Positions 4,962 to 41,213 of a stretch of 46,311 bases of DNA are shown here, one piece after another. The number at the start of each line of letters is the position of its first letter. Positions within the stretch are counted from its first letter, which is position 1. The position numbers and the translations under genes are program-made. Origin of the DNA: Pseudomonadota bacterium (GTDB lineage Bacteria > Myxococcota_A > Bradymonadia > UBA4248); NCBI GenBank assembly GCA_017421975.1, contig JAFOHE010000022.1:1-46311 (forward strand), in the 5' to 3' direction. Below the pieces are notes generated by a model. That model did not search any database. It was not told the DNA's origin and worked only from the letters and a program-made list of their open reading frames with translations.

Positions 4962-5810
4962 ATGAGTCTTATTAAACAATCCATTGCCGAGTTGATCGGT
5001 ACATTTTGGCTTGTCTTTGGCGGTTGCGGCGCTGCGCTTCTCGCCTGTGGAGTACCCGATAATGGTATTGGTTATCTCGGCGTTTCTCTTGCTTTTGGTT
5101 TGACGGTTTTGACGATGGCTTTTGCCATTGGCCATATTTCCGGTTGCCATTTGAACCCCGCTGTCACGCTTGGTCTTCTTGCTTCCGGTCGTGACAAAGA
5201 TCCCAAACGTGCCGTTTTCTTCATTATTGCTCAGTGCATTGGTGGCATCATTGCTGCTGGTCTTCTCTTTGCAATCGTCAAAAACTCGCTCAATATTCCT
5301 GATTCTGGTGCTCTAGCTGGTACATTTGCAACAAACGGTTGGTCAACGGATGGTGCTGCCCGTTTTGGTAATATTGCTTATGGCATGGGTGCAGCTTTTG
5401 CGATTGAAGCTGTCCTTACCTGCATTTTCCTCTTTGTCATCATCGGTGCGACGGACAAACGTGCGCCTGCCGGCTTTGGCCCGATCGCCATCGGTCTTTG
5501 CCTGACGCTCATCCACCTGATTAGTATTCCTGTGACCAACACGTCTGTCAACCCTGCGCGTTCGACGGCAATGGCGATTTTCGTTGGTGGTGAACCCGTG
5601 AGCCAGCTCTGGCTGTTCTGGGTTGCGCCTATCCTCGGCGCTGTGATTGCTGGCCTGCTTTATCGTTTTGTTTTCGAAGCAAAAGATGAATGCTGCTGCG
5701 GTGGCAAATGCAAATGCGATGATTGCAAATGCGAAAAGAAAGCTGAGAAAGTAGAAGAGAAGAAAGAAGAAAAAGCTGAAGAGAAGAAGGAAGAAAAAGC
5801 TTCTGAATAA
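4962..5810 (+). CDS. aqpZ: Aquaporin Z with a Cys-rich and Lys/Glu-rich C-terminal extension
   Basis: [15 protein letters not shown]; [11 protein letters not shown]; [11 protein letters not shown] (two NPA motifs); LWLFWVAPI. Confidence 0.96.
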
Positions 5811-5828
5811 TCGTCAGCAGAAGTCATG

Positions 5829-5859
5829 AAAAAGGCGGATTTTAGGATCCGCCTTTTTT
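5829..5859. terminator. Bidirectional intrinsic terminator after aqpZ
   Basis: AAAAAGGCGGAT-loop-ATCCGCCTTTTTT between convergent genes. Confidence 0.85.
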
Positions 5860-5953
5860 AGTTTTTAATGCGATTGGAAGCGTCATGATTGATGCAAGCG
5901 TCATGTTTTTGTGGTTGGTATAAACCAACTCCGGCATGATGATTCGTAGTTTT

Positions 5954-6106
5954 GGGGGCGTTGCGGGGGATGCCCCCGCAGAGGGGGTAGCGGCGTATGG
6001 CGCAGAAGGGGGCGTTGCTATCGGCGGAGCCGATACGCAACGCGGCGCGGCTTCTCGCTTTGCTCAATACGCCGCGCCATAGCCGCGCAGGGGGCGTCTG
6101 CCCCCT
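5954..6106 (-). repeat. Dispersed palindromic element (REP/REPIN- or MITE-like), copy 1, long form
   Basis: Near-identical to 18205-18357 and 34011-34164; contains several hairpins; ends GGGGGC...GCCCCC. Confidence 0.92.
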
Positions 6107-6111
6107 CAAAA

Positions 6112-7605
6112 TTAATCGTTATTTTCCCTGTCGCCATCGAGTTTTTTAAGTTTCCGATGGAGGCTTGTGCGTTCGATGGCCAGAACATCCGCCGTTCGAG
6201 AAACATTGTTGCCCAAGAGTTTAAGCGTTGCCTGAATGTAAGCGAATTCGGCAATGGCGCGGAAATCGCGCAGTGGCATGGAGCCTGGTTTGATGGCGGC
6301 GATTTCAGCCATGGGAGATTGATCTTCGGAAGGTGTTATGGGTAGGGCGGCAGCCGTATCATCGATTTGGGGTGCCGATTCTGTGGGTGTGACAGTCGTT
6401 GGCTCTGCTTGTGGTGTATCAGGCAACGGCATGAGGGGGACTTCGTCGGTGACGTCGACGGGAAGATCGGCGAGCGTGACCGTATCGGAACACATGATGA
6501 CGAAGCGCTCACAAATGTTTCGGAGTTCACGGATGTTGCCTGGGTAGCTGTATCGGCTCAACAGATCCATGGCGCGGTCACTGACGTTGAGTACAGGTCT
6601 TCCGTATTCCATGGCGATTTGTTTGAGGAAGACGTTGATGAGGAGAGGGACGTCTTCGAGTCGTTCGCGCAAGGGGGGAACGTGGATAGGCACGACGTTG
6701 AGTCGGAAGTAGAGGTCTTCGCGGAAAGTGCCTTCAGCGACAGCTTTTTTGAGGTCTTTGTTCGTTGCAGCAATGACGCGGACATCGACGGTTTCGAGTT
6801 TTTCGCCACCGACGCGTGTGAACTCACCATTTTGTAGGACGCGCAGGACTTTTGCCTGAGCGGCGAGTGACATATCGCCGATTTCGTCGAGGAAGATGGT
6901 TCCGCCGTCAGCCATTTCGAAGAGACCTCGTTTTTTAACGGCAGCGCCTGTAAATGAACCTTTTTCGTGTCCGAAGAGCTCGCTTTCGATGAGTTCAGAA
7001 GGGATGGCGCTGCAATTAACTTTGACAAAAGAGCGTTTGGCGCGTTGAGACAGGGCGTGGATGGAACGCGCGACGAGGTCTTTTCCGACGCCGGATTCGC
7101 CCAGAATGAGGACTTTTCCCATGGTTGGACCGACGACTTCAACGGATTTCCGGATTTTCTGCATGGCAGGTGAGTTTCCGATCATGCCACAATAACGTTC
7201 GTCGGCGGTTTCGAGAGATTGAACGCGTTGTGAAAGGATGTGGCGCTCTACGGCGTTTCGGACGGTCAAAATGAGACGTTCGCGGTCAATGGGTTTTTCG
7301 AGGAAATCGAACGCGCCTAAGCGCGTGGCGTTGACAGCGTCATTGAGTGTGGCGTGACCGCTCATCATAATAATTTCTGGTCGGTTATCGTCTTCACGGA
7401 TATGATCGAGCATTTCGATGCCGCTCATACCAGACATTTGTACGTCAGCGATGAGAACGTCATAAGGGTGTTCAGCGAGTTTGGAGAGCCCTTCCTCAGC
7501 ACTTGAAGCCGTCTCAATTTCGTAATCTTCGTCCATGAGTACCATACGGACAGTACGACAGATATTCTTTTCGTCATCGACAATCAGGATGTTTGCACAC
7601 GTCAT
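6112..7605 (-). CDS. Sigma54-dependent response regulator (NtrC/NtrX/AtoC family: receiver, AAA+, Fis HTH)
   Basis: ILIVDDE, receiver Asp in ADVQM; GESGVGKD; ELFGHEKGSFTGA; FLDEIG; FREDLYFRLNV; YPGNIRELRN; C-terminal HTH. Confidence 0.96.
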   Translation of the reverse strand: MTCANILIVDDEKNICRTVRMVLMDEDYEIETASSAEEGLSKLAEHPYDVLIADVQMSGMSGIEMLDHIREDDNRPEIIMMSGHATLNDAVNATRLGAFDFLEKPIDRERLILTVRNAVERHILSQRVQSLETADERYCGMIGNSPAMQKIRKSVEVVGPTMGKVLILGESGVGKDLVARSIHALSQRAKRSFVKVNCSAIPSELIESELFGHEKGSFTGAAVKKRGLFEMADGGTIFLDEIGDMSLAAQAKVLRVLQNGEFTRVGGEKLETVDVRVIAATNKDLKKAVAEGTFREDLYFRLNVVPIHVPPLRERLEDVPLLINVFLKQIAMEYGRPVLNVSDRAMDLLSRYSYPGNIRELRNICERFVIMCSDTVTLADLPVDVTDEVPLMPLPDTPQAEPTTVTPTESAPQIDDTAAALPITPSEDQSPMAEIAAIKPGSMPLRDFRAIAEFAYIQATLKLLGNNVSRTADVLAIERTSLHRKLKKLDGDRENND

Positions 7606-7607
7606 AA

Positions 7608-8333
7608 TTATTTAGCCTCATATCCGACAGCCATATTGAAGAGCGGACGATTGGTCGGCTCAATGCCAAGTGATTTTTGTAATTCGGACTGATCACCGCG
7701 CATCATGCGGATGACCGTAGCGAGCCCTTCGGCAGCGCAATAGAGCGCAATATTTTGAGAAACGACGCCTGAATCAATGCCTTGAATAACTTCATTATCG
7801 GCAAAAGAAGAAGTCACGATCAATTCGACGGGGGCGGCTTTGACGGGACGCAGATCACCTTCTGCGACGCGAATGAGTTTGTGTGCGACGTGATCATAAC
7901 GATACGTGGCTTTTTCGAAGGCAACGAAGAGCGATACGCTTTGCAGATTTCGAGCCGATGGAGCGGTGCGCTTGCCGTCTTCGCGATTGATGCCGTTGCC
8001 AGACCAGAGCAGAGCCGAGAGCTGTTCAAGTGAAATCATCTGATCGGTATAACTTCGAATACTGCGTCTGTCCTGTAGGCATTGTGTCAATGTCGCCTTG
8101 ACGGGGAGTGGTTTAGGCAGGCTGATTTCTGCTTCGCCGACGGCGATGGGGGTTTGGGAAACTTTTTGAGCAGGCGCAGGTGCTTCGGCAGTCGGTGTCG
8201 CTTCGGCGGCAGCCGTGTTAGGCGCTTCGGCGGGTGGGGGCGTTACTGGCTGTTGCGGACAATTGCATGGTTCTGCCTGACAGGCAGTGATGAAGAAGCC
8301 GATACTCAGCATAAGACTTATTTTTTTTATCAT
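7608..8333 (-). CDS. Lipoprotein with a SagB/ThcOx-like nitroreductase domain
   Basis: Lipobox ITAC; Pro/Ala linker; RRSIRSY; RTAPSARN; DSGVVSQNIALYCAAEGL. Confidence 0.85.
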   Translation of the reverse strand: MIKKISLMLSIGFFITACQAEPCNCPQQPVTPPPAEAPNTAAAEATPTAEAPAPAQKVSQTPIAVGEAEISLPKPLPVKATLTQCLQDRRSIRSYTDQMISLEQLSALLWSGNGINREDGKRTAPSARNLQSVSLFVAFEKATYRYDHVAHKLIRVAEGDLRPVKAAPVELIVTSSFADNEVIQGIDSGVVSQNIALYCAAEGLATVIRMMRGDQSELQKSLGIEPTNRPLFNMAVGYEAK

Positions 8334-8465
8334 CTGTATTTTACCTCCGAGTTAAAAAATGACGTGGCACGGATGATTGTCTAAATTAACGGAAACGAGC
8401 AAGTTTGGCAACGCGTGACATAAAAAACAGGTCATGCGGCGTGCGTACACATGGCATACAATTTT

Positions 8466-8556
8466 TAGTTTTCAGTTTTCAGTAATCATTCAGTAGTCAG
8501 TAGGCGCGGTCTCGTACTCGCCCCAATGCTTAGCTTCGCCCCGAAGCGTAGTCAGT
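8466..8556 (+). repeat. Degenerate heptamer repeats plus a REP-like GTAGG unit, related to 11042-11210
   Basis: TTTTCAG x2 and TCAGTAG x2, then GTAGGCGCGGTCTCGTACTCGCCCC, then a small TAGCTTCG/CGAAGC[G]TA hairpin. Confidence 0.5.
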
Positions 8557-8736
8557 TTTTCCACACAGCGTGCATTTGCCAGAAGGGGAGGGCAGGTGTG
8601 TTTCCAGGGTATGCTTACATTCATGGCATACGCAAACGATTACGCCTGACGCCTTGTTGCAACATGGCTTGGAGAGTTGAACTTCGTCTTTTGCATTGTT
8701 ATAAAGGAACAGGGGGAGGCCTGAATGGAGATCATT

Positions 8737-11043
8737 ATGAGAAAATCGATTTTTATCCTTATAAGTATCACGATTGCAGCGAGCCTTTTTGGGTGTATTG
8801 ATAAAGATGATAATTTGAACGTTCCAGAAGATGAAATATGCAAAGAAGGTACGCTCAAAGCAGGGCGGGCCAAAGGCCACTGTGGTTGCGACACGGAAGA
8901 CGTGATTAATATGCTGACAGGCCGATATACATGTGATGAGACGGATCCCAATGATCAGGAACGCGTCGATCTTTGTCCGAACGATCCAGATAAAATCGAG
9001 CCTGGTATTTGTGGATGCGGATTAAGTGATGCGCCAAATGATAAAGGTGAAATCTGGTGTTCTTCGCTTGACCTCTGTCCGTTGGATGAGCAAAAAGTCA
9101 GGCCTGGCGTGTGCGGATGTGGTGTCTCCGATGAGATTAATCCTCAGACAGGTCTTTATATTTGTCTTGAAAACAACGTCGATCTTTGCCCGGAAAATCC
9201 CGACAAAAAGACGCCTGGCATTTGTGGATGTGACGAATCGGACGATGTGTATGATCCGGAGCTTGCCGGAACGCTTTTTGAGAGTGTACCGATCTGTCTC
9301 ACCCGTGATCTCGATATGTGCCCCCATGATGCCAATAAAACGCGTCCAGGCAAATGTGGTTGTGGTGTGTCCGATGTCGATACAGATGGTGATGGCTATC
9401 TCGATTGCGTTGATGCCTGTCCAAACGACAAAAATAAATGGGAAGATGAAGGCGTGTGCGGTTGTGGTCTTGTAGACAGCGATGTGAATCTCTCCGATGA
9501 TGACGGCGACGGCGTGCCGAATTGCATCGATATCTGTCCAAACAACGTCTATAAATCGTTCAATACGAAAAACGTCCCACACACCAATGGTAAATACAGT
9601 GAGGATGTTGAAAAATGTGTCCTTGAAGATGGCACGCCGGATTGTGCGCGCATCTATACCGTCTATGAAACGAAGCCACTTTGTGCGCTCATCATTGATA
9701 CACCAGAAGCGCTTATTGAACTTCGTGATGCCTGGAACAATGGTGAGTATGAGCATGTGACGCCGGAACGGGCTTCCTTTATCCTCAAGGAAGATATTGA
9801 TATTGGCGACAACATTCCGATGCTTGAAGACTGGTTTGGCATCGGAACAGAGACGTATCCTTTCTTTGGTATTTTCCTTGGTGAAAAGCATAAGGTATCT
9901 GCTACAACGGGTGGTACTTCACTCGTCTTAGGCAGTTCTGAAACGGATGCTGTTGGTTTGTTTTCCGTCATTCGAGGTGGGGAGACGCCAGCTGTCATTG
10001 ACAATCTTCAAGTTGATCTTTCTTTTACGGGGCATGATCACGTCGGTATTCTTGCGGGTAAAGCTGAGAATGTTTCCATTAAGCACATCAGCGTGACTGG
10101 CAGTGTATCGGGGGAAAGCAACATCGGTGGTCTTGTCGGTTTTGTGTCCCGTGGTATGCTCGAAAATGTCTCAGCCAATGCGACCGTGAGTGGAAACGTC
10201 AACGCTATTGGCGGTCTTATCGGCATGCTTTCTGGTTCCGTCGTGTCTCATGCCTTTGTTTCGGGCAATTCGGTTAATATTTCAAGCCGTGAATTGGCGA
10301 CTGAAACGGGTGGCTTTGTCGGTGTCATGGCAGATGCTTCTAGCATCAGCAATGCATATTCGAGTGGTAACGTATCAGGATATGCCTATACCGGTGGTTT
10401 TGTTGGAGCCATCAAAGGTGCGTCAACGCTTATCAATGCGTATGCTTTTGCCTCCGTAACCTGTCAGTCTTCGCCCTGCGCAGGCATGGTGGCGACGATT
10501 ATGGAGGAATCGACGCTCAATAATGTTTATGCGACCAATTATGTGGTCAACAGTATTGTCGAAGACACCTCTGGTTCGACAGAGGGAGAACCAGATGGTG
10601 GAGGTGCTGATGGTAACAATGAAGGTAGTGAGCCATCTTCGGATGATCCGACACCAGGTGAAGGCAATGGCAGCGACGATGGCGGACACCCGCAGACGGA
10701 GCCTACCGATATCTGTGATACGGAACCCATCACAGGGCTTATTGCCGAAGTGTGCGGTGAAAATACCATCGTCAATTTTTATGCATGGACTGATGCTTAT
10801 GAAGTAAGCGTACCGGAAAGTCTTCATGACAAATTGCAAAAATTCAGTTTTAAGAATCTCATTGCCACACTTGAAAATGGCAGTTATCTTAAAACGCAGC
10901 TTAACAAAAATATTAATTGTGACAGCAAAGGAATATGTATTCTTGATGACGTGACATACGAACCATGGAATCAAATTCAATTTCGATTAAATAATATGTC
11001 ATTATCTATTCCTGCATTTACATCATTGAAAACGACATATTAG
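8737..11043 (+). CDS. Large lipoprotein with Cys-rich thrombospondin type 3-like repeats and a GLUG-motif beta-helix region (track start 8725)
   Basis: Lipobox LFGC; five DxCPxDxxKxxPGxCGC-type repeats; DTDGDG and DDDGDGVPN Ca-binding motifs; repeated GGLVG/GGLIG/GGFVG. Confidence 0.85.
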   Translation: MRKSIFILISITIAASLFGCIDKDDNLNVPEDEICKEGTLKAGRAKGHCGCDTEDVINMLTGRYTCDETDPNDQERVDLCPNDPDKIEPGICGCGLSDAPNDKGEIWCSSLDLCPLDEQKVRPGVCGCGVSDEINPQTGLYICLENNVDLCPENPDKKTPGICGCDESDDVYDPELAGTLFESVPICLTRDLDMCPHDANKTRPGKCGCGVSDVDTDGDGYLDCVDACPNDKNKWEDEGVCGCGLVDSDVNLSDDDGDGVPNCIDICPNNVYKSFNTKNVPHTNGKYSEDVEKCVLEDGTPDCARIYTVYETKPLCALIIDTPEALIELRDAWNNGEYEHVTPERASFILKEDIDIGDNIPMLEDWFGIGTETYPFFGIFLGEKHKVSATTGGTSLVLGSSETDAVGLFSVIRGGETPAVIDNLQVDLSFTGHDHVGILAGKAENVSIKHISVTGSVSGESNIGGLVGFVSRGMLENVSANATVSGNVNAIGGLIGMLSGSVVSHAFVSGNSVNISSRELATETGGFVGVMADASSISNAYSSGNVSGYAYTGGFVGAIKGASTLINAYAFASVTCQSSPCAGMVATIMEESTLNNVYATNYVVNSIVEDTSGSTEGEPDGGGADGNNEGSEPSSDDPTPGEGNGSDDGGHPQTEPTDICDTEPITGLIAEVCGENTIVNFYAWTDAYEVSVPESLHDKLQKFSFKNLIATLENGSYLKTQLNKNINCDSKGICILDDVTYEPWNQIQFRLNNMSLSIPAFTSLKTTY

Positions 11044-11210
11044 TGGTCAGTGGTCAGTAGTCAGTGGTCAGTGGTCAGTGGTCAGTAGTAGGGGCGTGGT
11101 CTAAGACCCGCCCCGATTTGGTAGTCAGTAGTCAGTGGTCAGTGGTCAGTAGTCAGTAGTCAGTGGTCAGTGGTTAGTAGCAATCCGTAGGTGTGGTCTT
11201 TGAGCCGCCT
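11042..11210 (+). repeat. Two AGTRGTC heptamer arrays, each followed by a GTAG-type REP-like unit
   Basis: 7 units at 11042-11090 and about 9 units at 11120-11182. Hairpin GTA-GGGGCG(t)GGTC-taa-GACC-CGCCCC at 11088-11114; degenerate copy at 11187-11210. Confidence 0.88.
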
Positions 11211-11250
11211 CTGGGTGAGAGCTGCTATATTATATTAATTTTGTAATAAC

Positions 11251-11329
11251 GGTGTTAAATGCGTTTATATTTAGATTGAAGGTGTTAAATGCGTTTATAT
11301 TTAGATTGAAGGTGTTAAATGTATTTATA
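11251..11329. repeat. 30-bp tandem repeat, about 2.6 copies
   Basis: GGTGTTAAATGCGTTTATATTTAGATTGAA exact at 11251 and 11281, partial at 11311. Confidence 0.9.
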
Positions 11330-11467
11330 CTGAAATAACAGAATAGCATGGTTTCCGTGGAGACATAACATATTATGATATAGTATGTGTATGATGGTGG
11401 ATTTGTTTTTGGCAAACGCGAGAAGGCTAAAGCACGCGGTTATGGCGGGGCAACCTGATTATGGTTA

Positions 11468-11549
11468 CGGCGGCGTATTTTTGGTTAACCAAAAATAGCC
11501 GCCGGCGTGCCGCGTATTTGTCTGCCAAGTATGGCAGACAAATAGCGGT
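11468..11549. repeat. Two adjacent long hairpins, each with one extrahelical G
   Basis: CGGCGGC[G]TATTTTTGGTT/AACCAAAAATAGCCGCCG (11468-11504) and GCCGC[G]TATTTGTCTGCCA-agta-TGGCAGACAAATAGCGGT (11509-11549). Confidence 0.88.
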
Positions 11550-11561
11550 CGCAAATAAAAA

Positions 11562-11578
11562 TTGGCACTTTATTTGCA
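11562..11578 (+). promoter_or_regulatory. Sigma54 (-24/-12) promoter
   Basis: TTGGCAC-TTTAT-TTGCA with canonical GG-N10-GC spacing, about 60 nt upstream of ATG 11638. Confidence 0.75.
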
Positions 11579-11637
11579 TGATATGAATTGGACTTAGGAA
11601 GTCTCGTGTAGGCTTTTTGCACAGATGGAGTGTCGTT

Positions 11638-12366
11638 ATGCACAAGATACAAAAGATATGGATTGCACTTTTAGGTTGTATGTCGCTCGTATTATTGAGT
11701 TCGGTGCCAGCATACGCGGAGCCGCATCGTCCGCCTGATGGTGGAGGCTATCATTACGATTCGGGTCGAGGTCATCATAATCCGCCACCGCCTAAAAAAG
11801 GCCGTGTTCACCATGATAATGGTGGTGCAGCCGTGGCCGTTGCAGCTGGGGCAGTAGCAGTCGCTGTGTTGGCAGATGCCGCGCTGAATACAGCAGCTCC
11901 AGTAGATGATGTTTATGTGTTTGGTGTCGGTGTGCGAGGTTTTGGCAACGCAGTCACGGATATGCGGACGGGCGGAGGCATTGGTGCTTATGTTTGGGTG
12001 CGGCCGATTCGCTGGATTTCAGTCGAGGCTTATTCGGATTTGGTATTTAATGAGCGTCGATGTTATGGCAGAGATGAGGGGTATCTTCGCATACCATTTT
12101 ATGTAGGGCTTCGCGCTCATGTGTTTGATTATAGTGCCTTTGATTTGTATGGAGCCGTTGCGGGTGGTGTGAATTTCCAGTATGGTCATGACGATCAGGA
12201 AGGTTTTGGCGGAGGTATGCATATCGGAGGCGGTGTCTCTTTTAAGGCAAGCAAATTCGATATTGGTTTTGATATTCGCTATACGGTAGAATCGAATGAC
12301 CTTGATTTTGACCGTTCAGTGATTCATGGTTGCACATTTGCATTGACCATGGGTTTGGCCGTATAA
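11638..12366 (+). CDS. Secreted protein, probable small outer-membrane beta-barrel with a His/Pro-rich N-terminus (track start 11617)
   Basis: RBS GGAG; signal peptide ending AYA; alternating Gly/aromatic beta-strands. Confidence 0.7.
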   Translation: MHKIQKIWIALLGCMSLVLLSSVPAYAEPHRPPDGGGYHYDSGRGHHNPPPPKKGRVHHDNGGAAVAVAAGAVAVAVLADAALNTAAPVDDVYVFGVGVRGFGNAVTDMRTGGGIGAYVWVRPIRWISVEAYSDLVFNERRCYGRDEGYLRIPFYVGLRAHVFDYSAFDLYGAVAGGVNFQYGHDDQEGFGGGMHIGGGVSFKASKFDIGFDIRYTVESNDLDFDRSVIHGCTFALTMGLAV

Positions 12367-12393
12367 ATTGTGTGACAAGAAAGTAACAACATG

Positions 12394-12416
12394 GCCGCCT
12401 GCAAGGGCGGTTTTTT
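12394..12416 (+). terminator. Intrinsic terminator
   Basis: GCCGCCT-GCAA-GGGCGGT followed by a T run. Confidence 0.75.
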
Positions 12417-12430
12417 AATGGAGATTGTAA

Positions 12431-12907
12431 ATGCCAATAACGACGGGAACTGGCGATGATGGTCAGACGACCTGGCGTAATGTACGTGTACTCAAAACAT
12501 CGAAGGAAATCGTGTTTTTGGGTTTGATGGATCGCGCCATCGCGGAGATCGCGCAGGCGCGCGTTTTGGCGCGAGCTGTATCTCAGGAATCCGTGTCGTG
12601 TGATTTGAAACAGATCTCGTCAGCCTTGGGCGACATTTGTGCCATCACAGCGGCGGATGCCGAACGGGATTTGATATCAGTCGTGGTATGGGCAACCAAA
12701 AAAACGCTTGGCAAAAGCATGACAGAATTTGTGGATTTTGGAGCGATGTCGCCGCTTGCCGCAGCGATTAATCTGGCGCGGACATCTGTGCGTCTGGCGG
12801 AATCGCATTTACCGGATGCGTCTGATGAGCAGAATCCGTTGATTCGGCCACTCATGAATCGATTATCGGACGTTTTATTTGTATTGGCCTGTGAATGTGG
12901 CAAATAG
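12431..12907 (+). CDS. PduO-type ATP:cob(I)alamin adenosyltransferase, short and divergent
   Basis: ITTGTGDDGQT; ARTSVRLAES; MNRLSDVLFVLA. Confidence 0.8.
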   Translation: MPITTGTGDDGQTTWRNVRVLKTSKEIVFLGLMDRAIAEIAQARVLARAVSQESVSCDLKQISSALGDICAITAADAERDLISVVVWATKKTLGKSMTEFVDFGAMSPLAAAINLARTSVRLAESHLPDASDEQNPLIRPLMNRLSDVLFVLACECGK

Positions 12908-13061
12908 TCAGCCAATCTTAGACACCACAGGGATGCGTTGTGGTGTCAGAGATTGATGTCATCAGTGCCGTTAAAGTCGTGGTAACAAGCCGAAACGATA
13001 AGGAATCACGAAACTTAGCGTTTGCGTGTTTAATTAGGGCATTGGGCGGATGCAAAAGACC

Positions 13062-14195
13062 TTATTTGCAGGACATGGGGGAACCGCCGTTCAGTCCGCA
13101 ACGTTTTTGCATATTGTTTTTCCATTTTTTTCCATAGATGTCGCTTAGGACTTTCGAAATGGTTTTGTTAGCCCACATCCCGCGTTTTGCGTTTTGTGCT
13201 TCGCCGAGAGCCGAGCAAATGCCGGAAATTTTAGAAGTGGTGCAGTAGTAGTCGGTATTTGCGAGGGCGTATCCTGCGCGCGTGATTTCAGTAGAGAAAT
13301 CGAGCCAAGTGCCATCTTTTTGATAAGAGATGTAGACGAGGCGTCTGCTTTCGGTATCGTCAATTTCGCACCCGCCGTCTTTGTCGTTTCTGTCGCATGA
13401 GATTTTGACTTTTGCGCCTTCAGGCAAAAGTTCGGAGGCTTTTTGCCATGCTTCGTAGCCGAAGGGATCGTTTGTGACCCAGTCGCCATCGGCATTTTGA
13501 TAATGGCCAGTGCGAGAGGATTGCACGCAAGTATAGTAATGATCGGAGCCTTGTTTTTTTTCACATTCAGGGCAATCGATGCCATGGAGACGCACGCTGT
13601 AATCTGCGCTGAGGCAACCATCGTGTGCGAAACGCAGTCGGACAGTGTCACCGTCCGTCACTTTGATGACGGTTGCTTCATCGCCGTTTTTCGGTATGCA
13701 TGCGGGGATATCTTCAGCATGACATTCAGCTTCAATGCAATAGGGTGTATTACCAGAACAAGATCTAACTTGTTTGAGGAGCGGGCAACCATTTTCGTTT
13801 GTGCCACACTGCATGATTTTGCCATATTGTCGTCCATTGCAGACGGGGTCATCGCCGAGGGTACAACTTGTGAATGTTTCGCATGGGTCTTTGCAAACGC
13901 CGGTTTCGATGCAGTAGTGAGCGTTAATACATTCGCTTTCACTCAAAGCAGCACAATCACATTTTGTCTGACATTCCTCAGATTTGCATCGTTCAAGATT
14001 GGAGAGATCCTTACAAGGATCGATTTCTTCGCACCATTCAATTTTGCAAAGGTTGAGGTTAATTTTGCAGTCATCGCCGAGGGATTGGCAAAATGCTTTG
14101 TCTTTATCGTCAGTAGGTTCGTCGCATGCCGTGAGCGAAAGAGAGAGAAGTGCAAACGCTGAGAAGCAAGCAAAGCAGTAAGAGGTTAAACGCAT
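13062..14195 (-). CDS. Thermonuclease (SNase) family lipoprotein with a Cys-rich N-terminal region (track start 14228)
   Basis: Lipobox LTAC; VIKVTDGDT; VRLHGIDCPE; AQNAKRGMW. Confidence 0.88.
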   Translation of the reverse strand: MRLTSYCFACFSAFALLSLSLTACDEPTDDKDKAFCQSLGDDCKINLNLCKIEWCEEIDPCKDLSNLERCKSEECQTKCDCAALSESECINAHYCIETGVCKDPCETFTSCTLGDDPVCNGRQYGKIMQCGTNENGCPLLKQVRSCSGNTPYCIEAECHAEDIPACIPKNGDEATVIKVTDGDTVRLRFAHDGCLSADYSVRLHGIDCPECEKKQGSDHYYTCVQSSRTGHYQNADGDWVTNDPFGYEAWQKASELLPEGAKVKISCDRNDKDGGCEIDDTESRRLVYISYQKDGTWLDFSTEITRAGYALANTDYYCTTSKISGICSALGEAQNAKRGMWANKTISKVLSDIYGKKWKNNMQKRCGLNGGSPMSCK

Positions 14196-14380
14196 GATAT
14201 TACTCCATCTAAAAGTGCATCCATACAAGCACGGGGCACTTTCTAATGACGAAGGTAACGTGATTCAAGCGAAAAGGCGGAAAAAATACAGATACGATAT
14301 TGGATTGTGACACTATACATCATTCCAAAAGTGTGTTAGATTAAACTTTTGTCTGATTTATCGAATGAAAGGATAGACAC

Positions 14381-15496
14381 ATGAAATGGATTCAGCTTTC
14401 ACGCCTTCAAACCGAATCATGGTCAGACCCACGCGTTCTGATTGTTTTTTCGACGCAGCCGTATGAAGCCCTGCCCGTGGCGTCACTTCGAGCGACTTTT
14501 CCCAGGCTTCAGATCATGGGGATGAGTTCCCATCATGGTGTATTTACGCCTGAAGGGTTCAAGCGAGGCTCGTTTGGGCTTTTGTTTGAGGGAGCAGAAG
14601 GCGAGAAGATACATGCTCAGCTGATTACGTTTGATGAAGCGGATGCCATCCGTTCAAAAGTGTCATTGGCTGTATCTGCGATGCCACCGCTTGGCACAGA
14701 ACGCAAATTCATAATGTATGGCATTTGTGGTATTGAAGAGCGCGTGATTGAAGGCATCAAGGATGTCTTAGGTGAAAATGCCAATGTACTTGGTGCCACG
14801 GCTGGGTATGATCTTTTTCTTGATGGTCCGTACGTTTTCATTAATGAAGACGTCACATCACGCGGTGTGCTATTTGCAGAAACTGAGCTTTCGGAATATC
14901 GGACGATCAACACAATGGCTGGTTATTTGCCGTCAGAGAAACGCGGCATTGTGACGCGTTCAGAAGACCGTCTTCTGTATGAGATCAACCATTTACCGGC
15001 ACCAGAAGTTTTTGATGCATGGACGGATGGCATGTTTTCTCCCTACCTTGATCACGATTGTCTTTTACCGCGTTCGGCGGGCAAATTTCCCATTGGCCGC
15101 ATTTACAATGGAAACCATGAGTTTGGAATATGGCTCACGCATGTTTACGGTGTCCAGGGGGATGCGCTCATGCTCTATTCGGAGATTGGCGAGGGCACAG
15201 AGATTTGCATGACACGTGGTTCGACGAAAGAGATTCTGGATAATCTGAAATGTGCAATTGACAAGACTTTTCACAGGGTTGAGCGCAGCCGCGTTATCGG
15301 TGTATTTTTGTATTTTTGTGCTGGTTGCACAAATCTCGTGGCTGAGAGCATAGAACAATTGAGTATGGCTATTTGTGAATCGCTTGAAGGGATTCCGTTT
15401 ATCGGTGCATCGACGATGGGGGAACAGGGCTGTCTTGAACATCAACCGCTTCAGCATGGAAACATGATGATCGGCATGACGCTTATAATGAAGTAG
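14381..15496 (+). CDS. Stand-alone FIST (FIST_N/FIST_C) signal transduction protein
   Basis: GMSSHHGVFT; GATAG; LYEINHLPA; FCAGC; GASTMGEQG; HGNMMI. Confidence 0.85.
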   Translation: MKWIQLSRLQTESWSDPRVLIVFSTQPYEALPVASLRATFPRLQIMGMSSHHGVFTPEGFKRGSFGLLFEGAEGEKIHAQLITFDEADAIRSKVSLAVSAMPPLGTERKFIMYGICGIEERVIEGIKDVLGENANVLGATAGYDLFLDGPYVFINEDVTSRGVLFAETELSEYRTINTMAGYLPSEKRGIVTRSEDRLLYEINHLPAPEVFDAWTDGMFSPYLDHDCLLPRSAGKFPIGRIYNGNHEFGIWLTHVYGVQGDALMLYSEIGEGTEICMTRGSTKEILDNLKCAIDKTFHRVERSRVIGVFLYFCAGCTNLVAESIEQLSMAICESLEGIPFIGASTMGEQGCLEHQPLQHGNMMIGMTLIMK

Positions 15497-15528
15497 CAGC
15501 CGCACCATGCATGGTTTTCAAAAAACGT

Positions 15529-15556
15529 AAAAAGCCGCACAGCGTGCGGCTTTTTT
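15529..15556. terminator. Bidirectional intrinsic terminator
   Basis: AAAAAGCCGCAC-agc-GTGCGGCTTTTTT between the convergent FIST gene and rpiB. Confidence 0.88.
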
Positions 15557-15558
15557 GA

Positions 15559-16020
15559 TTAAAGGAGCCCTCGTTCGATATCGAGGATTTTTCGGACACG
15601 CCGTTCGTGCCGTCCACCATCAAAATCAGTTTCCATGAAGCGTTTGAGGGCTTCGATGGCAATAACGGGGCCGGTCGTGGCTGCACCAAAGCAGATGATG
15701 TTGGCGTCGTTGTGTCGCCGTGTCATTTCTGCTTCGAAAATGTGGTGTACAAGTGCGGCACGAATGCCTGGAACTTTGTTTGCGGAGATGGAGATACCGA
15801 TTCCTGTACTGCAGACGAGGACGCCGGCAATGGCTTTGTGGTCAGCCACAGCGTGGGCGACGGCAGCACCGAAATCAGGATAATCGCAGGAATCGGTGTT
15901 GTGCGTGCCTTTGTCATCGACGACGTATCCCATATCAGCAAGACATTGCTTGAGTTGTTCTTTGAGTGCGTAACCTGCGTGGTCACTGCCAATGGCAATG
16001 GTAGAACCTGTTGGAAACAT
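15559..16020 (-). CDS. rpiB: Ribose-5-phosphate isomerase B
   Basis: GSDHAG; DYPD; CSTGIG; ANKVPGIRAAL; RRHNDAN; FDGGRHERRV. Confidence 0.97.
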   Translation of the reverse strand: MFPTGSTIAIGSDHAGYALKEQLKQCLADMGYVVDDKGTHNTDSCDYPDFGAAVAHAVADHKAIAGVLVCSTGIGISISANKVPGIRAALVHHIFEAEMTRRHNDANIICFGAATTGPVIAIEALKRFMETDFDGGRHERRVRKILDIERGLL

Positions 16021-16029
16021 TTGAGCTCC

Positions 16030-18060
16030 TTACTTGATGAGAAGTTTTTCGAGTTGATCGACCGTTTCTTCAAATTCCTTGAGAGCGTCGGCGATCGGCG
16101 TAGGCGTGGTCAGATCAACGCCGGCTTCGCGCAGAAGCGTGACGCTGTCTTTGGCGCATCCTGATTTTAGCATATTGATGTATTTGTCAGCATTTTCGGG
16201 GGAAGCCTGAATGAGTCGTGCAAAAGCAAGTGCACTTGAAAGGCCAGTCGCATAGCTATAAACATAATATTTATAGTAGAAATGCGGTACATAAGACCAT
16301 TCATAGCCGTCGTTGGCATCAATGGTATAATCGGGGCCGTAGTATTTGCGAATCAAATCTGCATAGAGCTGACTGAGCCATTTTGCATTGATCGCTTCGC
16401 CATTTTCGAGTGCCGTATGTGCGCGATATTCAAATTCGGCGAAGAGTGTCTGACGATAGATGGTTCCACGAATATTTTCGAGTTTCTGTACGAGCAGATT
16501 AATTTTTTCGGCGTCCGTCGTTGCATGCGAGAAGAGGTAATCATTGAGGATAGATTCATTCGTCGTAGAGGCGATTTCGGCGAGGAACATGGTGTAATGC
16601 GCGGAGCCTGGCGGTTGGGTTTCCATGGAATAAATGCTGTGCATGGAGTGCCCGAGTTCATGCGCAAGTGTCGAAACATCATCGAGGTCGTTTTGATAAT
16701 TGGTGAGAATGAAGGGTGAAATGCCATAGACCGAGCATGAGTAAGCACCACTTGTTTTACCTTCGTGTGGGAGAAGGTCGATGGAACCTTTTGCCGGATC
16801 CATTTCGGCTTTGAGGCGCGTGATATAATCATCGCCGAGCGGCGCGAGGGCTGTGGCGATGAGACTGGTCGCTTCTTCGTAAGAATAGGATTTTGTATTT
16901 TTGACATCTGCGAGAGGAATGTACAAATCGTAGAGATGTACAGTATCGACATTCATGACTTTTTTGCGCAGCGCAACGTATTTATGGAGCGGTTCGAGAT
17001 TTTTCGCGACGGTATCGATGAGATTTGTATAGAGTTCAACGGGAAGGTTGTCTTTATCGAGATAGGCTTCGAGGGCAGTGTTGTAATTGCGTGCACGCGC
17101 AAATAGGATATCTTGTTGAAGCTGTCCAATGTAAGTATTCGCGAGGACATCTTCATATTTTGCGAGCGTTGACATAAGGCCGTCTACAGCCGCTTTACGT
17201 ACATTTCTGTCTGGGCTTCGACGATATTTGGGATAATTTGAAAGCGTCAACTGAATGTCATTGCCAGCCTCATCTTTGATGATTGGCAGCGACATGGAAT
17301 CTAGCATGGCATCGAAAGTATTTTCTGCGTTGGAGTGGATTTCGTTAAGATCGATTTCAGCCCAAAGGTTGTCGCCGGCGAGCGAGAGAACGCGTTCAGC
17401 ATCGGGGGACAGGATTCTGTTTGCACGTCTTGCGATATTGTGGATATAGGCTTCGTGGACTTTCAAACCAGGATCTTCGTTGAAGAAAGCATCGAGTTGT
17501 TCGGCGGAGAGTTTGAGCAGCCCGTTTCGAACGGTGGATGCACGGCTCATGAAATCATCGAGGACGCGTTTCGCTTTTTGTTGCATCGTGTTGGATTCAG
17601 GGCTCGGCTCGGTATCGACCGTCATATTGGCATAGAGTGTCAGTTTGTTGACGGCCGTATGAAGGTCAAAGTAGAGATCGAGACATTGTTTGAGCGTCGC
17701 AGCTGATTCAAAAGCAGAACATTCGCTGATTTGCTTAATATCTTCCGTCGTTTTGACGAGTGCTGCATTAAAAGCATCGTTCGATTCGAAGAGACGCGAT
17801 TTGTTCCATTTAAATTTTTCGTCAATTTCGCTACGTTTTTTGACGCCATTTCCGGCGGGAGCAGCGGCAGTAGGTTGTTCCTGATTTGCAGTGTTCACGG
17901 TATTTGTGGGGGATGCTTCGGGGGCAGGTTGTGGGGTGGCAGCAGCTTCAGGTTGCGGGCATGAAGGACAGGCCTGCGTGGGGCAGTTTTGCTGGCAGGA
18001 GGCAAGCAATAATAGGCTCGTGGCTGCCATGACGGAAGCACATTTCGTAAAGTTTGACAT
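16030..18060 (-). CDS. pepF: Oligoendopeptidase F (M3B) with a lipoprotein signal
   Basis: Lipobox LASC; GKTSGAYS; TLAHELGHSMH; AEIASTTNE; RQTLFAEFE; PHFYYKYYVYSYATG. Confidence 0.93.
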   Translation of the reverse strand: MSNFTKCASVMAATSLLLLASCQQNCPTQACPSCPQPEAAATPQPAPEASPTNTVNTANQEQPTAAAPAGNGVKKRSEIDEKFKWNKSRLFESNDAFNAALVKTTEDIKQISECSAFESAATLKQCLDLYFDLHTAVNKLTLYANMTVDTEPSPESNTMQQKAKRVLDDFMSRASTVRNGLLKLSAEQLDAFFNEDPGLKVHEAYIHNIARRANRILSPDAERVLSLAGDNLWAEIDLNEIHSNAENTFDAMLDSMSLPIIKDEAGNDIQLTLSNYPKYRRSPDRNVRKAAVDGLMSTLAKYEDVLANTYIGQLQQDILFARARNYNTALEAYLDKDNLPVELYTNLIDTVAKNLEPLHKYVALRKKVMNVDTVHLYDLYIPLADVKNTKSYSYEEATSLIATALAPLGDDYITRLKAEMDPAKGSIDLLPHEGKTSGAYSCSVYGISPFILTNYQNDLDDVSTLAHELGHSMHSIYSMETQPPGSAHYTMFLAEIASTTNESILNDYLFSHATTDAEKINLLVQKLENIRGTIYRQTLFAEFEYRAHTALENGEAINAKWLSQLYADLIRKYYGPDYTIDANDGYEWSYVPHFYYKYYVYSYATGLSSALAFARLIQASPENADKYINMLKSGCAKDSVTLLREAGVDLTTPTPIADALKEFEETVDQLEKLLIK

Positions 18061-18204
18061 AAGAACTCCTTATAACTGTTAAAAACGCGTTTGTTTTTGC
18101 AAACAAACTTGATTTTCCTTTTAAGGCAAAAGAGCCATTTTGTATGTTTTTTATGCACATGGAAAAACAGGCATTTTTCTTAACCACGTAGCGTGCGTGT
18201 CAAC

Positions 18205-18357
18205 GGGGGGCGTTGCGGGGGAATCCCCCGCAGAGGGGGTAGCGGCGTATGGCGCAGTTGGGTGCGTTGCTATCGGTAAAACCGATACGCAACGCGGCGC
18301 GGCTTCTCGCTATGCTCAATACGCCGCGCCATAGCCGCGTAGGGGGCGGCTGCCCCC
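18205..18357 (-). repeat. Dispersed palindromic element, copy 2, long form
   Basis: Near-identical to copy 1, with a compensatory change in the inner hairpin (C-G to T-A). Confidence 0.92.
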
Positions 18358-18729
18358 AAAAATAGGCACCATGTTGTGTGTTAAGGCCCGTAAATCAATG
18401 CCATTGATTTGGATAAATATAACTACATGTAGGTCTAAAAATGATCCCCCATAAGTGTTATGCCAGGCAATTGCGTGTTGTTACGAAAAAAAGTTAATGT
18501 TCAGTATAATTAATTTTATATGAACATGTGTCTTTTTGAACCCACTGTCTGCCGAAGCTTCTATTTTTCTTGAACTTGTGGTGGAAGTGATCGAAAAATG
18601 ACGACGCGTAAGATGAAAATATGATAAATGATAGAATTGCGTCGAGTGACGCATATTTTTTGAAAGAAAGCCTGTTGTGGCCGGTGAGCTTTTGCTGGTC
18701 GGAATATGCTATGTATATACGGAGGAAAA

Positions 18730-19515
18730 ATGAGATTTCGTATCACCTGTCTTGTGCTCGCAGTCCTTTTTGCATTTCCGTCGATGGGATTTGTTTGTGC
18801 GACGCGCGTCGAAAAGATGGAAGCGGACATAGAGGCTCTCCAGATTCAGTTTAACGATGTTCAGAAGCGGCTGAATAACGATCAGACGCAGCTCACGTCG
18901 ATGATTTTACGCGCGGACAAGAAACTTGAAGAACTGAGTGGTACGCAGGACAAATCCGCAGAATCGGTAGCGCAACAGAACGTTCAGCTTGCGCTTGAGC
19001 TTGAACAGGAACGTGCTGAACTTGCGAGTATGCGTGGACGCCTTGAAGTGCAGCAAAAGACGATAGAATCGCTTCAGGAGAGTTTGCAATCGGTGATGGG
19101 GTCGATCTCATCGACGGGTGGCGGCAATGCAGTGATATTGCCATCCGATCAGGCTGGACTTGAGGCCTATATCATTCAGAAACGTACAGCTGGTGACAAG
19201 GCAGCGCTCAAGACGGCGATTGCCGAGTATGTATCGCGCTATCCGGATGACGCGAAACTTGAGTCATATCTCGCTGAATATGTCGGTATTCTCTATGCGG
19301 ATAAACAGTATGGCGAAGTCATTACGAGTTCGACGATGTATTTGCAGAAGTTCCCCAACGGGGCCAAAAAAGCTGATGTGATTTACCACATGGGCATGGC
19401 AGGCATGGAGACGGGCAATTGTCAGCTTGCGACGATTTCATTTAAGGAGTTGAAGAAGTTGGATGCCAATCGTGCGAAAGACGCGCTTGATCTGGCTCAA
19501 ACAAAGTGTAAGTAA
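18730..19515 (+). CDS. CpoB/YbgF-like protein (coiled coil plus TPR) (track start 18706)
   Basis: RBS GGAGG; signal peptide; long coiled coil; TPR-like YLQKFPNGAKKADVIYHMG. Confidence 0.7.
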   Translation: MRFRITCLVLAVLFAFPSMGFVCATRVEKMEADIEALQIQFNDVQKRLNNDQTQLTSMILRADKKLEELSGTQDKSAESVAQQNVQLALELEQERAELASMRGRLEVQQKTIESLQESLQSVMGSISSTGGGNAVILPSDQAGLEAYIIQKRTAGDKAALKTAIAEYVSRYPDDAKLESYLAEYVGILYADKQYGEVITSSTMYLQKFPNGAKKADVIYHMGMAGMETGNCQLATISFKELKKLDANRAKDALDLAQTKCK

Positions 19516-19521
19516 ACAGCT

Positions 19522-20076
19522 ATGCGTCAAAACGACAGTTCAGAGCTTCAACATGTGTCCACGTCTGAGGAAATCGAGATTCGTCCGATGACGATTGATG
19601 ATCTTGCGCCTGTCTTTCATCTTGGCGAGAGACTTTTTACGCCGGATCGATGGCCAGCGCTTTATCGCACGTGGGATGAGTATGAAGTCGTGGCTTTTTT
19701 TGAGGGGGACAGTGACACATGTTTCGTCGCCGAACACGAGGGAAAAGTCGTCGGTTTTGCTCTAGGAAACGTGATTGAAAAACGCCGCAGTGCTTGGAAA
19801 TACGGTTATATCGTGTGGTTGGGCGTGGATCCGGAAATGGGGCGTCATGGCATTGGTTCCATGCTTTTTGACGCTATGCGCGATGAATTTATCGAACTCG
19901 GCGTGCGCATGATTCTCGTCGATACGGATGCCAACAATACGCATGCGATTCAGTTCTTTAAGAAAACGGGATTTGACCACGAGAACAAGCATGTTTATTT
20001 GTCGATGAACCTCACGCATTGTGCGGCATACCAGAATTATCGCAAAAGACTCAGGGAAGATGAAGAGGAGTCTTGA
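19522..20076 (+). CDS. GNAT family N-acetyltransferase
   Basis: IRPMTIDDL; FVAEHEGKVVGF; LGVDPEMGRHGIG; NTHAIQFFKKTGF. Confidence 0.92.
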   Translation: MRQNDSSELQHVSTSEEIEIRPMTIDDLAPVFHLGERLFTPDRWPALYRTWDEYEVVAFFEGDSDTCFVAEHEGKVVGFALGNVIEKRRSAWKYGYIVWLGVDPEMGRHGIGSMLFDAMRDEFIELGVRMILVDTDANNTHAIQFFKKTGFDHENKHVYLSMNLTHCAAYQNYRKRLREDEEES

Positions 20077-25997: not shown

Positions 25998-26022
25998 GTC
26001 GCTGTCAAAATAAATGCGTATG

Positions 26023-26143
26023 GTAGGGGGCAGCCGCCCCCTACGCGGCGATTGGCTGTATGTGAGGGCGTGTCGCGACACGCCTTCACATACAGCCAAT
26101 TCGCCGCTACCCCCTCTGCGGGGGATTCCCCCGCAACGCCCCC
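26023..26143 (+). repeat. Dispersed palindromic element, copy 4, short form with its own 50-bp central palindrome
   Basis: Ends match the reverse complement of copies 1-3. Centre (26051-26100) is ATTGGCTGTATGTGAGGGCGTGTCG/CGACACGCCTTCACATACAGCCAAT with one G.T pair. Confidence 0.9.
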
Positions 26144-26195
26144 TTCGCATGAGCCGACGCTTCATCATGGATGATGTCGTTTTATAAGGCAGATT

Positions 26196-34010: not shown

Positions 34011-34164
34011 GGGGGGCGTTGCGGGGGAACTCCCCCGCAGAGAGGGTAGCGGCGTATGGCGCAGAATGGGGCGTTGCTATCGGCGGAGCCGATACGCAAC
34101 GCGGCGCGGCTTCTCGCTTTGCTCAATACGCCGCGCCATAGCCGCGTAGGGGGCGGCTGCCCCC
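34011..34164 (-). repeat. Dispersed palindromic element, copy 3, long form
   Basis: Near-identical to copies 1 and 2. Confidence 0.92.
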
Positions 34165-34185
34165 ACCCAAAGGCGGGTGGAAGCT

Positions 34186-39867: not shown

Positions 39868-39889
39868 AGATCGTTTTGGGTTTTCTCAT

Positions 39890-40011
39890 GTAGGGGGCTT
39901 TGCCCCCTTACGCAGCTATTGGAACGCCGTAGTGACATGAAGTGACATGTCTCTACGGCGTTCCAATACGCCGCTATCCCCCCTTGCGGGGGATACCCCC
40001 GCAACGCCCCC
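39890..40011 (+). repeat. Dispersed palindromic element, copy 5, short form with a third type of central hairpin
   Basis: Shared ends. Centre (39917-39968) is TATTGGAACGCCGTAG-t-GACATG-aagtga-CATGTC-t-CTACGGCGTTCCAATA. Confidence 0.9.
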
Positions 40012-40178
40012 TCACGTTTGTTTCTACTAGGCAGGGGATAAGCTATGCATTTGAAATATGCCATAATAGTTACTTAGAAACGTGTATTTCAAATCATCGC
40101 ATGTTCTGATGATAAATAGGGACTATTGATTACGGTGAACCACTGACCGTTATCTATCTGATTCAGTGTGATTATTTT

Positions 40179-41138: not shown

Positions 41139-41213
41139 TATATTCTATCTCCTTCTTAGTGTGATCAGACGCAGCCCGTCGGCGACGTTGTGATCCAAAA
41201 TGACGGAGTGAAT

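Follow-up and report, generated by a model that had tools for sequence, protein, structure and literature searches.

The window (a stretch of 46,311 nucleotides, contig JAFOHE010000022.1 of assembly GCA_017421975.1) carries at 11468-11549 two adjacent hairpins whose long stems differ and whose base is the same: GC, one unpaired G and TAT on the 5' side, facing ATA and GC on the 3' side (GC[G]TAT...ATAGC, here called the foot). They belong to a family of about 500 intergenic hairpins in the source genome, which resemble repetitive extragenic palindromic (REP) sequences. On balance, we favour the reading that the foot is a putative recognition site for an enzyme of the REP-associated tyrosine transposase (RAYT) type, in which the bulged G and the TAT replace the 5' GTAG of REPs. 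Known REP/RAYT systems come mainly from Proteobacteria and are characterized by family-specific stems and by a 5' GTAG; their transposase, TnpA-REP, and the TnpA of IS200/IS605 elements bind folded hairpins of single-stranded DNA (ssDNA) in a strand-specific manner, through irregular bases.

The first hairpin of the pair reads CGGCGGC[G]TATTTTTGGTT / AACCAAAAATA-GCCGCCG, with a 3' arm that can also be written AACCAAAAATAGCCGCCG; the second reads CCGC[G]TATTTGTCTGCCA-agta-TGGCAGACAAATA-GCGG, with a 3' arm also written TGGCAGACAAATAGCGG. The two are in direct orientation, 5 nt apart. Folding of 11460-11556 as ssDNA returned exactly these two hairpins, with one unpaired G each, at -38.6 kcal/mol (z = -9.8), and none of 200 shuffled sequences folded as well. 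A preliminary description of this DNA had singled out the pair for its shared bulged foot, and both the sequence and the fold agree with it on this point, while the span given there for the second hairpin, 11509-11549, is corrected here to 11510-11548. The region 11468-11549 was found inside contigs in four of four public sequencing runs, with no internal difference among the matches listed.

The foot is strongly enriched in the source genome (G000; 3.63 Mb in 384 contigs, 47.8 % G+C, 92 % complete with 5 % estimated contamination), in which the window corresponds to contig C174. Among 1491 hairpins formed by TAT with at least 4 further bp and closed by ATA, the plus strand has 225 copies of GC[G]TAT..ATAGC and the minus strand 177, against 5 for symmetric GC-TAT..ATA-GC and 9 for CG-TAT..ATA-CG. 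A search for the pattern GCGTATN11-17ATAGC on both strands gave 302 instances, to be compared with 18, 4 and 10 when the bulged base is A, C or T, 19 when there is no bulge and 6 for GCGTAT..ATACGC. The genome scan proposed in the preliminary description thus shows the bulged form in excess over every control named there, by about 15- to 75-fold. A survey independent of the motif leads to the same picture: of 4597 perfect hairpins (stem >=7 bp, loop 2-12 nt), 515 are extended beyond a one-base bulge by an outer stem of 3 bp or more, and C[G]TAT accounts for 328 of them (GC[G]TAT 252, CC[G]TAT 66, TC[G]TAT 10), any other context being found three times at most. The bulged base in these 515 hairpins is G in 380 cases, C in 50, T in 44 and A in 41. 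The foot signature is therefore real and far above chance; a lack of enrichment over the symmetric controls, which would have spoken against it, is clearly not what the genome contains, since the bulged form far exceeds the controls and dominates the motif-free survey.

A catalogue of SC[G]TAT with at least 4 bp and ATAGS (where S is G or C) contains 508 members, 428 with GC and 80 with CC, distributed on the plus (248) and minus (260) strands and spanning from 22 to 121 nt. Information content does not exceed about 0.6 bit at any position beyond the fixed CGTAT/ATAG, except at the adjoining G or C pair. Covariation was analyzed on the 301 instances chosen by GCGTATN11-17ATAGC alone, a selection that avoids circularity. 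Watson-Crick pairing was found in 86, 73, 68, 56, 54 and 39 % of instances at outer pairs 1-6 and in 91, 80, 73 and 89 % at inner pairs 1-4; with the partner slid by one position only 19-50 % were paired, and all four pair types are used at every stem position. The foot is thus invariant, while the stems around it covary freely. On the bulged-G strand, single mismatches interrupting stems that are continuous apart from them are of the G·T/T·G type in 34 inner and 14 outer cases, versus 13 and 0 for A·C/C·A; since G·T mismatches (48) outnumber A·C ones (13) and the hairpins are equally frequent on the two genome strands, selection appears to act on the folding of the bulged-G strand, and these counts point to this strand as the folded one.

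On an open reading frame (ORF) map that is crude and covers 85 % of the genome, 431 of the 508 hairpins are intergenic, 12 overlap an ORF partially and 65 are inside ORFs, mostly spurious ones of 300-400 nt generated by the repeats themselves, or over-extended starts. Clustered hairpins follow one another head to tail every 35-40 nt, with stems that are unrelated from unit to unit. A replication-strand bias is weak, the bulged-G strand coinciding with the C-rich strand at 162 loci and with the G-rich one at 129 (p = 0.06), and it was not used in the argument.

Besides the 342 stand-alone copies, 139 hairpins are found within a conserved frame, ...G5-n-C5-GCAGA-GGGGGTAGCGGC[G]TAT, followed by an interior and then by ATAGCCGCGTAGGGGG-n(3-9)-CCCCC. 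Of the 139 copies, 95 share an identical 16-nt left frame and 82 an identical right frame; right frames number 256 genome-wide, 129 of them preceded by ATAGCCGC and the rest mostly by one-base variants of it. Interiors are instead highly diverse and fall into 68 k-mer clusters, 63 of which are singletons; the largest has 62 members, with palindromic tips GGGACGTTCC/GAGACGTG, and the type present in the window has 8. Similarity between framed copies ends exactly after TAT and restarts at ATA, and the same break is observed when contigs of four public runs are aligned to the window. Genome-wide, most long hairpins with the bulged foot have tips that belong to two further palindrome families, GGGACGTTCCATGGAACGTCCC and GAGACGTGTCGCGACACGTCTC; these also occur as free tandem arrays beside RAYT-like genes, downstream of the one on contig C335 and on both sides of the one on G001:C109.

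Five framed composite elements are present in the window. Copies 1-3 are 157-nt repeats whose interior is closed by GCGGC[G]TATGGCGC...GCGCCATAGCCGC; in copy 1 the order is G5/C5 hairpins, GTAG, GCGGC[G]TAT (bulged G at 5995), the variable interior, ATAGCCGC and GCAG-G5..C5. The interior of these three copies consists of two bulged-foot hairpins on the opposite strand. In copy 4 the bulge is shifted two places further in and the bulged base is A; the 3' word of this variant, ATCGCCGC, is found in 7 of the 256 right frames. The preliminary description had reported the asymmetric closure in copies 1-3 and in the opposite-strand copy 5, the foot on the opposite strand inside copies 1-3 and the bulged-A variant of copy 4, all of which can be seen in the sequence, and its link between the stand-alone hairpins and the element family holds, the same invariant foot being present in both.

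The distribution of the signature was examined in 17 genomes of the same family and in 24 genomes representing six further families of its order and class, with counts on both strands and the pattern read backwards as control. Counts are 302-490 (control 10-24) in the three genomes of the own genus, 336-660 (control 17-113) in the 11 genomes of a second genus and 215 (control 13) in the single genome of a third one; a fourth and a fifth genus have 3 (control 2) and 17 (control 23), and none of the 24 genomes from the other families exceeds 12. The signature is thus enriched in 15 of the 17 family genomes, belonging to three genera (215-660 each), and not in two sister genera. Relatives of a protein encoded in the window, with 71-77 % identity, are found in metagenome-assembled genomes (MAGs) labelled Myxococcota bacterium. 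DNA synteny with genomes of the same genus is limited to matches of 48 and 107 nt with 75-83 % identity, from which orthologous presence or absence of the two stand-alone hairpins is unreadable. Judged from this comparison of sequences, the signature is old, lineage-specific and maintained.

A candidate for the enzyme is provided by two subfamilies of RAYT-like Y1 HUH genes, with 1-3 bulged-G hairpins directly beside them. The protein encoded on contig C157 matches NF047646 (REP_Tyr_transpos) with 67 bits and PF01797 with 36 bits, and gave no match in the PDB by sequence at E <= 0.01; three sense-strand bulged-G hairpins are located downstream of its gene, 29-103 nt past the stop. A search with this protein uncovered the second subfamily, represented on contig C335, with 23 bits for PF01797 and 34 bits for NF047646. 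In the AlphaFold model of the C335 protein, 104 residues have a predicted local distance difference test score (pLDDT) of at least 90, with a mean of 70 owing to an insert; all 29 of 29 Foldseek matches at E <= 0.001 are IS608, ISDra2, IS200 and kindred Y1 HUH transposases, and TnpA-REP (4er8) is found at rank 16, with 5.1 Å as the lowest root-mean-square deviation among the matches listed. The RAYT-like proteins possess HUH and Tyr motifs and, as modelled, the C335 protein has a Y1 HUH fold, closest to the TnpA of IS608 and ISDra2. Concerning the insert itself, it lies between the HUH motif and the tyrosine helix (loci L044, L045, L049, L046 and L052) and is a species-specific low-complexity or tandem peptide with pLDDT <50, as exemplified by RDTSLQSH x5, NDNGL x4 and DVN repeats.

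Of 14 RAYT-like loci that include an N-terminus in g1 and g4 genomes, 9 are accompanied by bulged-G hairpins, on one side of the gene only. For the C335 type, 8 of 13 loci with an N-terminus have strict hairpins within 300 nt upstream; these are antisense to the gene in 15 of 15 cases, and none is found downstream. As a baseline, at least two hairpins within 150 nt are found for 62 of 2241 genes (2.8 %), and at least three for 5 genes. By eye, the region upstream of C335-type genes is a module of three hairpins with feet GTGGC.., GGGCC.. and CCGCCCGC..; feet and linkers are kept across two genera, whereas the tips differ, from a few to about 50 nt, and the middle hairpin displays two compensatory pair changes (TTGCC/GGCAA versus TCGGC/GCCGA). 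A profile of both subfamilies was used to scan the 17 family genomes, which are all fragmented MAGs; matches were obtained in 9 of the 15 motif-rich genomes, 8 clear and 1 marginal (G011). The C335 subfamily was found only in motif-rich genomes, namely in 3 of 3 of the own genus and in 4 of 11 of the second genus. A different repeat is observed upstream of the C157 gene (G000:C157:900-1060), where tandem units of about 20 nt, GAGCTATAGGGCGGGTCTGG, end in a GGGCGGGTC/GACCCGCCC hairpin preceded by GTAG.

Table 1. Hairpins and framed elements of the window and RAYT-like genes of the source genome
Feature	Position	Strand	Description
Stand-alone hairpin 1	11468..11504	+	7-bp outer stem, unpaired G 11475, then TAT and 7 more bp
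Stand-alone hairpin 2	11510..11548	+	4-bp outer stem, unpaired G 11514, 13-bp inner stem, 4-nt loop
Framed composite element, copy 1	5954..6110	+	frame hairpin 5990-6086
Nested bulged-G hairpin in copy 1 interior	6012..6043	-	GCGTTGC[G]TATCGGC tcc GCCGATAGCAACGC
Framed composite element, copy 2	18206..18362	+	frame hairpin 18242-18338
Nested bulged-G hairpin in copy 2	18264-18295	-	GCGTTGC[G]TATCGG...CCGATAGCAACGC
Framed composite element, copy 3	34013..34169	+	frame hairpin 34049-34145
Nested bulged-G hairpin in copy 3	34071-34102	-	GCGTTGC[G]TATCGG...CCGATAGCAACGC
Framed composite element, copy 4	26015..26152	-	hairpin 26045-26107, variant GCGGCGA[A]TTGG...CCAATCGCCGC
Framed composite element, copy 5	39880..40016	-	hairpin GC[G]TATTGGAACGCC...GGCGTTCCAATAGC at 39915-39971
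C157-type RAYT-like gene	G000:C157:1120-1635		171 aa; HFH and YYEH motifs
C335-type RAYT-like gene	G000:C335:295-993		232 aa; MPDHIHL and QPRFYD motifs, low-complexity insert between them
C335-type RAYT-like gene, partial copy	G000:C365:2-295		

In the reading that we favour, the GC[G]TAT...ATAGC foot would be a protein-recognition module and the bulged-G strand would fold as ssDNA. A RAYT-like Y1 HUH enzyme would then read the extrahelical G, the C·G pair below it and the T·A, A·T and T·A pairs above it, with G-TAT taking the role of GTAG, and would bind, cleave and mobilize the hairpins on this basis. The upper stem and the tip would not be read, and would thus be free to vary, to lengthen and to take up nested palindromes, leading to the cassette-like appearance; only hairpins retaining the foot would be processed, so that their copies would be spread or kept. 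The preliminary description had proposed a recognition code for an ssDNA-hairpin or RNA-binding enzyme, which seems right in kind: specificity for the folded strand is supported by the prevalence of G·T over A·C mismatches and the RAYT-like candidate by the hairpin-flanked genes, whereas the RNA-binding option is disfavoured by the prevailing antisense position of the bulged-G strand.

Among known systems, the REP/RAYT pair known as REPtron, of group 2, is the most alike: it also comprises hundreds of short intergenic hairpins, and its Y1 HUH gene is flanked by them, to be compared with the hairpins on one side of 9 of 14 RAYT-like loci here. The group-2 TnpA-REP of E. coli, as presented in PMC8266576, needs a bulge in the REP stem together with a conserved tetranucleotide and acts on a single strand; similarly, the hairpins described here combine one folded strand, a stem irregularity and a conserved four-base word. 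Differently from REPs, this word is a G-TAT placed within the stem, with the G flipped out and the TAT paired, and not a single-stranded 5' GTAG; moreover, stems vary freely and are not family-specific, and one of the two enzyme subfamilies carries a low-complexity insert. A likeness also exists with the GTAG- and CGTC-tagged palindromic repeats (Di Nocera et al. 2013, PMC3733652): framed copies likewise have GTAG on both sides (138 of 139), and many of their tips are GACGT...ACGTC palindromes. In the repeats of that study the tag is at the end of the stem, and here it is at an internal bulge; the same paper states that families with bulges may have escaped detection, and neither 'GTAT' nor 'Myxococc' occurs in its main text. 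Among the papers listed for this lineage, as judged by titles and the beginnings of abstracts, no work on such repeats was found. The family is best regarded as an unusual variant of the REP/RAYT kind, and not as a plain member of it.

Several observations weigh against the proposed role of a RAYT-like enzyme. Stand-alone hairpins are devoid of the 5' GTAG that defines most REPs, which is present in 1 of 342 copies, and 64 of the 78 intergenic regions with more than one hairpin have them on a single strand (14 are mixed), so that arrays are direct, differently from the inverted arrangement of REPINs and of bacterial interspersed mosaic elements (BIMEs). Both RAYT-like subfamilies score below the NCBIfam cut-off for REP transposases (67 and 34 versus 80 bits). 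The hairpin-adjacent loci are homologous to each other, and the 8 of 13 are therefore not independent events; the partial protein on C365 is 94 % identical (92 of 98 residues) to one of another genus, G015:C275, with a nearly identical upstream module, and this may be due to horizontal transfer of the locus in its entirety or to wrong binning of the contig. The profile scan found no RAYT-like gene in 6 of the 15 motif-rich genomes (G007, which is 99 % complete, G008, G009, G010, G013 and G016), whose motif counts (336-660) are as high as those of gene carriers, and C157-type matches are also present in both motif-poor genomes. Finally, contigs of four runs from four studies, aligned to window 5000-20000, showed no insertion or excision variant among the matches listed, and none of them joins across a framed element; joints from 5998/5999/6001 to 6075/6078, or to 18330/18331, have other interiors and short sides (<=30), and are read as probable paralogous copies of the frame and not as alleles.

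The main rival explanation is based on the six genomes with no RAYT-like match and on hairpin numbers that are equal with and without the gene, and holds that some other protein reads the foot, the RAYT-like genes being merely located in repeat-rich spacers or regulating themselves through the hairpins. The hairpin-rich genomes without a RAYT-like match, the C157-type genes in motif-poor genomes and the scores below the curated cut-off agree with this explanation. However, a module of three hairpins fixed in place and orientation upstream of C335-type genes in two genera is not easily reconciled with chance residence in repeat-rich spacers, given the low baseline frequency of genes having at least two hairpins beside them. 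Moreover, RAYT-like genes are often found at contig ends (C365:2-295, G005:C107:5-154, G014:C633:65-493), and their absence from fragmented MAGs is therefore weak evidence. We regard a different reader of the foot as unlikely, though it deserves serious consideration.

A second alternative, also unlikely in our estimate, retains the Y1 HUH enzyme and assigns to the foot the role of an attC-like, structure-only ssDNA recombination site, at which the upper hairpin would be exchanged or would receive insertions. The attC sites of integrons are single-stranded sites defined by structure, with a conserved foot, one or more extrahelical bases marking the strand and a variable terminal structure of differing length; foot, extrahelical base and variable terminal structure are common to the hairpins described here. 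The frame GGGGGTAGCGGC[G]TAT ... ATAGCCGCGTAGGGGG could then represent a docking cassette, whose interior would be swapped exactly between TAT and ATA, and the stand-alone arrays could be strings of independently captured hairpins; the process would be a cassette exchange of non-coding palindromes, run by a domesticated transposase. Unlike attC sites, these hairpins are not accompanied by an integrase above the cut-off: the best match to the integron integrase model TIGR02249 has 86 bits versus a cut-off of 265 in the source genome. Furthermore, the fixed word CGTAT/ATAG differs from attC core sites, and the arrays consist only of hairpins lying between ordinary genes and do not bound gene cassettes. 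The ends of IS200/IS605 elements offer another term of comparison, since the Y1 HUH enzyme involved there recognizes an ssDNA hairpin that is sub-terminal and has an unpaired base, and the modelled C335 fold is nearest to that of IS608 and ISDra2. On the other hand, only 4 of the 15 loci for canonical IS200/IS605 TnpA in the family genomes (PF01797, 60-137 bits) have any bulged-foot hairpin at a distance of up to about 1.5 kb, and the hairpins do not delimit a unit as paired left and right ends.

An element acting at the RNA level seems to us improbable. It would require transcription of the hairpins, with the bulged G and its U·A pairs serving as a binding or processing site for an RNA-binding protein or an RNase, for example in mRNA stabilization. 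The tolerance for G·T on one strand would fit G·U equally well, many loops are GNRA-like or triloops, and the density of hairpins is higher where neighbouring genes converge (95 in 88 kb of spacer) than where they diverge (60 in 113 kb). Nevertheless, when both genes next to a spacer run in the same direction, the bulged-G strand is antisense to them more often than not (54 of 79 counts for stand-alone hairpins, p = 0.0015, and 56 of 97 for framed ones), so that read-through RNA would mostly contain the complementary, less well paired form. In addition, no Rfam match at gathering score was found on either strand of the 46-kb window. Intrinsic terminators were also considered and rejected, because no T-run follows the stem: in the flanks of stand-alone hairpins T frequencies over the ten positions past the foot are 7-18 %, and those of A ahead of it 20-51 %.

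REPs and BIMEs are also sites for gyrase or IHF, and a double-stranded or cruciform site for a nucleoid or topology protein, with no involvement of a transposase, would agree with the intergenic, clustered and high-copy occurrence of the hairpins, as in BIMEs. We consider this very unlikely, since in a duplex site the variable positions need not stay complementary, and there would be no reason for a preference of G·T over A·C on one strand. Least credible of all is the lack of any present function, with the extra G as an indel inherited from one ancestral repeat and passively carried: point mutation cannot remove a one-base asymmetry, and in the bulged-A variant two substitutions have moved the bulge without removing it, but CGTAT/ATAG has stayed fixed while all else has turned over in three genera whose coding DNA is about 75-83 % identical where alignable, and neutral decay would also erode TAT/ATA.

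How a REP enzyme tells strand and site apart is still being worked out. The repeat described here is stripped to a six-base foot and one flipped-out G, with all the rest variable, and about 500 copies per genome in 15 genomes represent a natural mutational scan of what recognition must keep; it could thus offer a clean substrate for studying how Y1 HUH enzymes read a bulge, as well as a possible bridge between REP recognition and structure-only recognition of the attC type. The C335 type adds a RAYT-like subfamily with an internal low-complexity insert that appears to be new. If the exchange of hairpin interiors were true, it would represent a cassette-exchange system of an uncultured lineage from the ruminant gut that is akin to Myxococcota MAGs. 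The hairpin repeats also account for the strong fragmentation of MAGs of this lineage, since 107 of the 508 copies lie in terminal stretches of contigs, where an anchor gene of at least 150 aa is missing on one side.

Other repeats are present in the window. Just upstream of the two stand-alone hairpins, 11028-11194 contains about 20 units of the heptamers AGTGGTC/AGTAGTC in tandem, flanking both sides of a G/C-rich hairpin, GGGGCGTGGTCT...ACCCGCCCC; one contig of run X8 has a 43-nt step back in this region. It is followed at 11235-11324 by three copies of a 30-nt AT-rich tandem repeat, and a 30-nt deletion at 11251 in run X12 corresponds to one unit fewer. In-frame repeats are found in two long ORFs: five 33-nt units (window 41302-41499) in ORF 41190-43103, and four spaced 54-nt units (8964-9362), ending in ..CCTGG..TGTGGATG, in ORF 8725-11043. 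As regards the occurrence of this DNA in public data, at least half of the sampled words of window 5000-14900 are present in 20 runs from 10 studies; one of these runs may represent the source sample, and their labels are gut, bovine gut or sheep gut metagenome.

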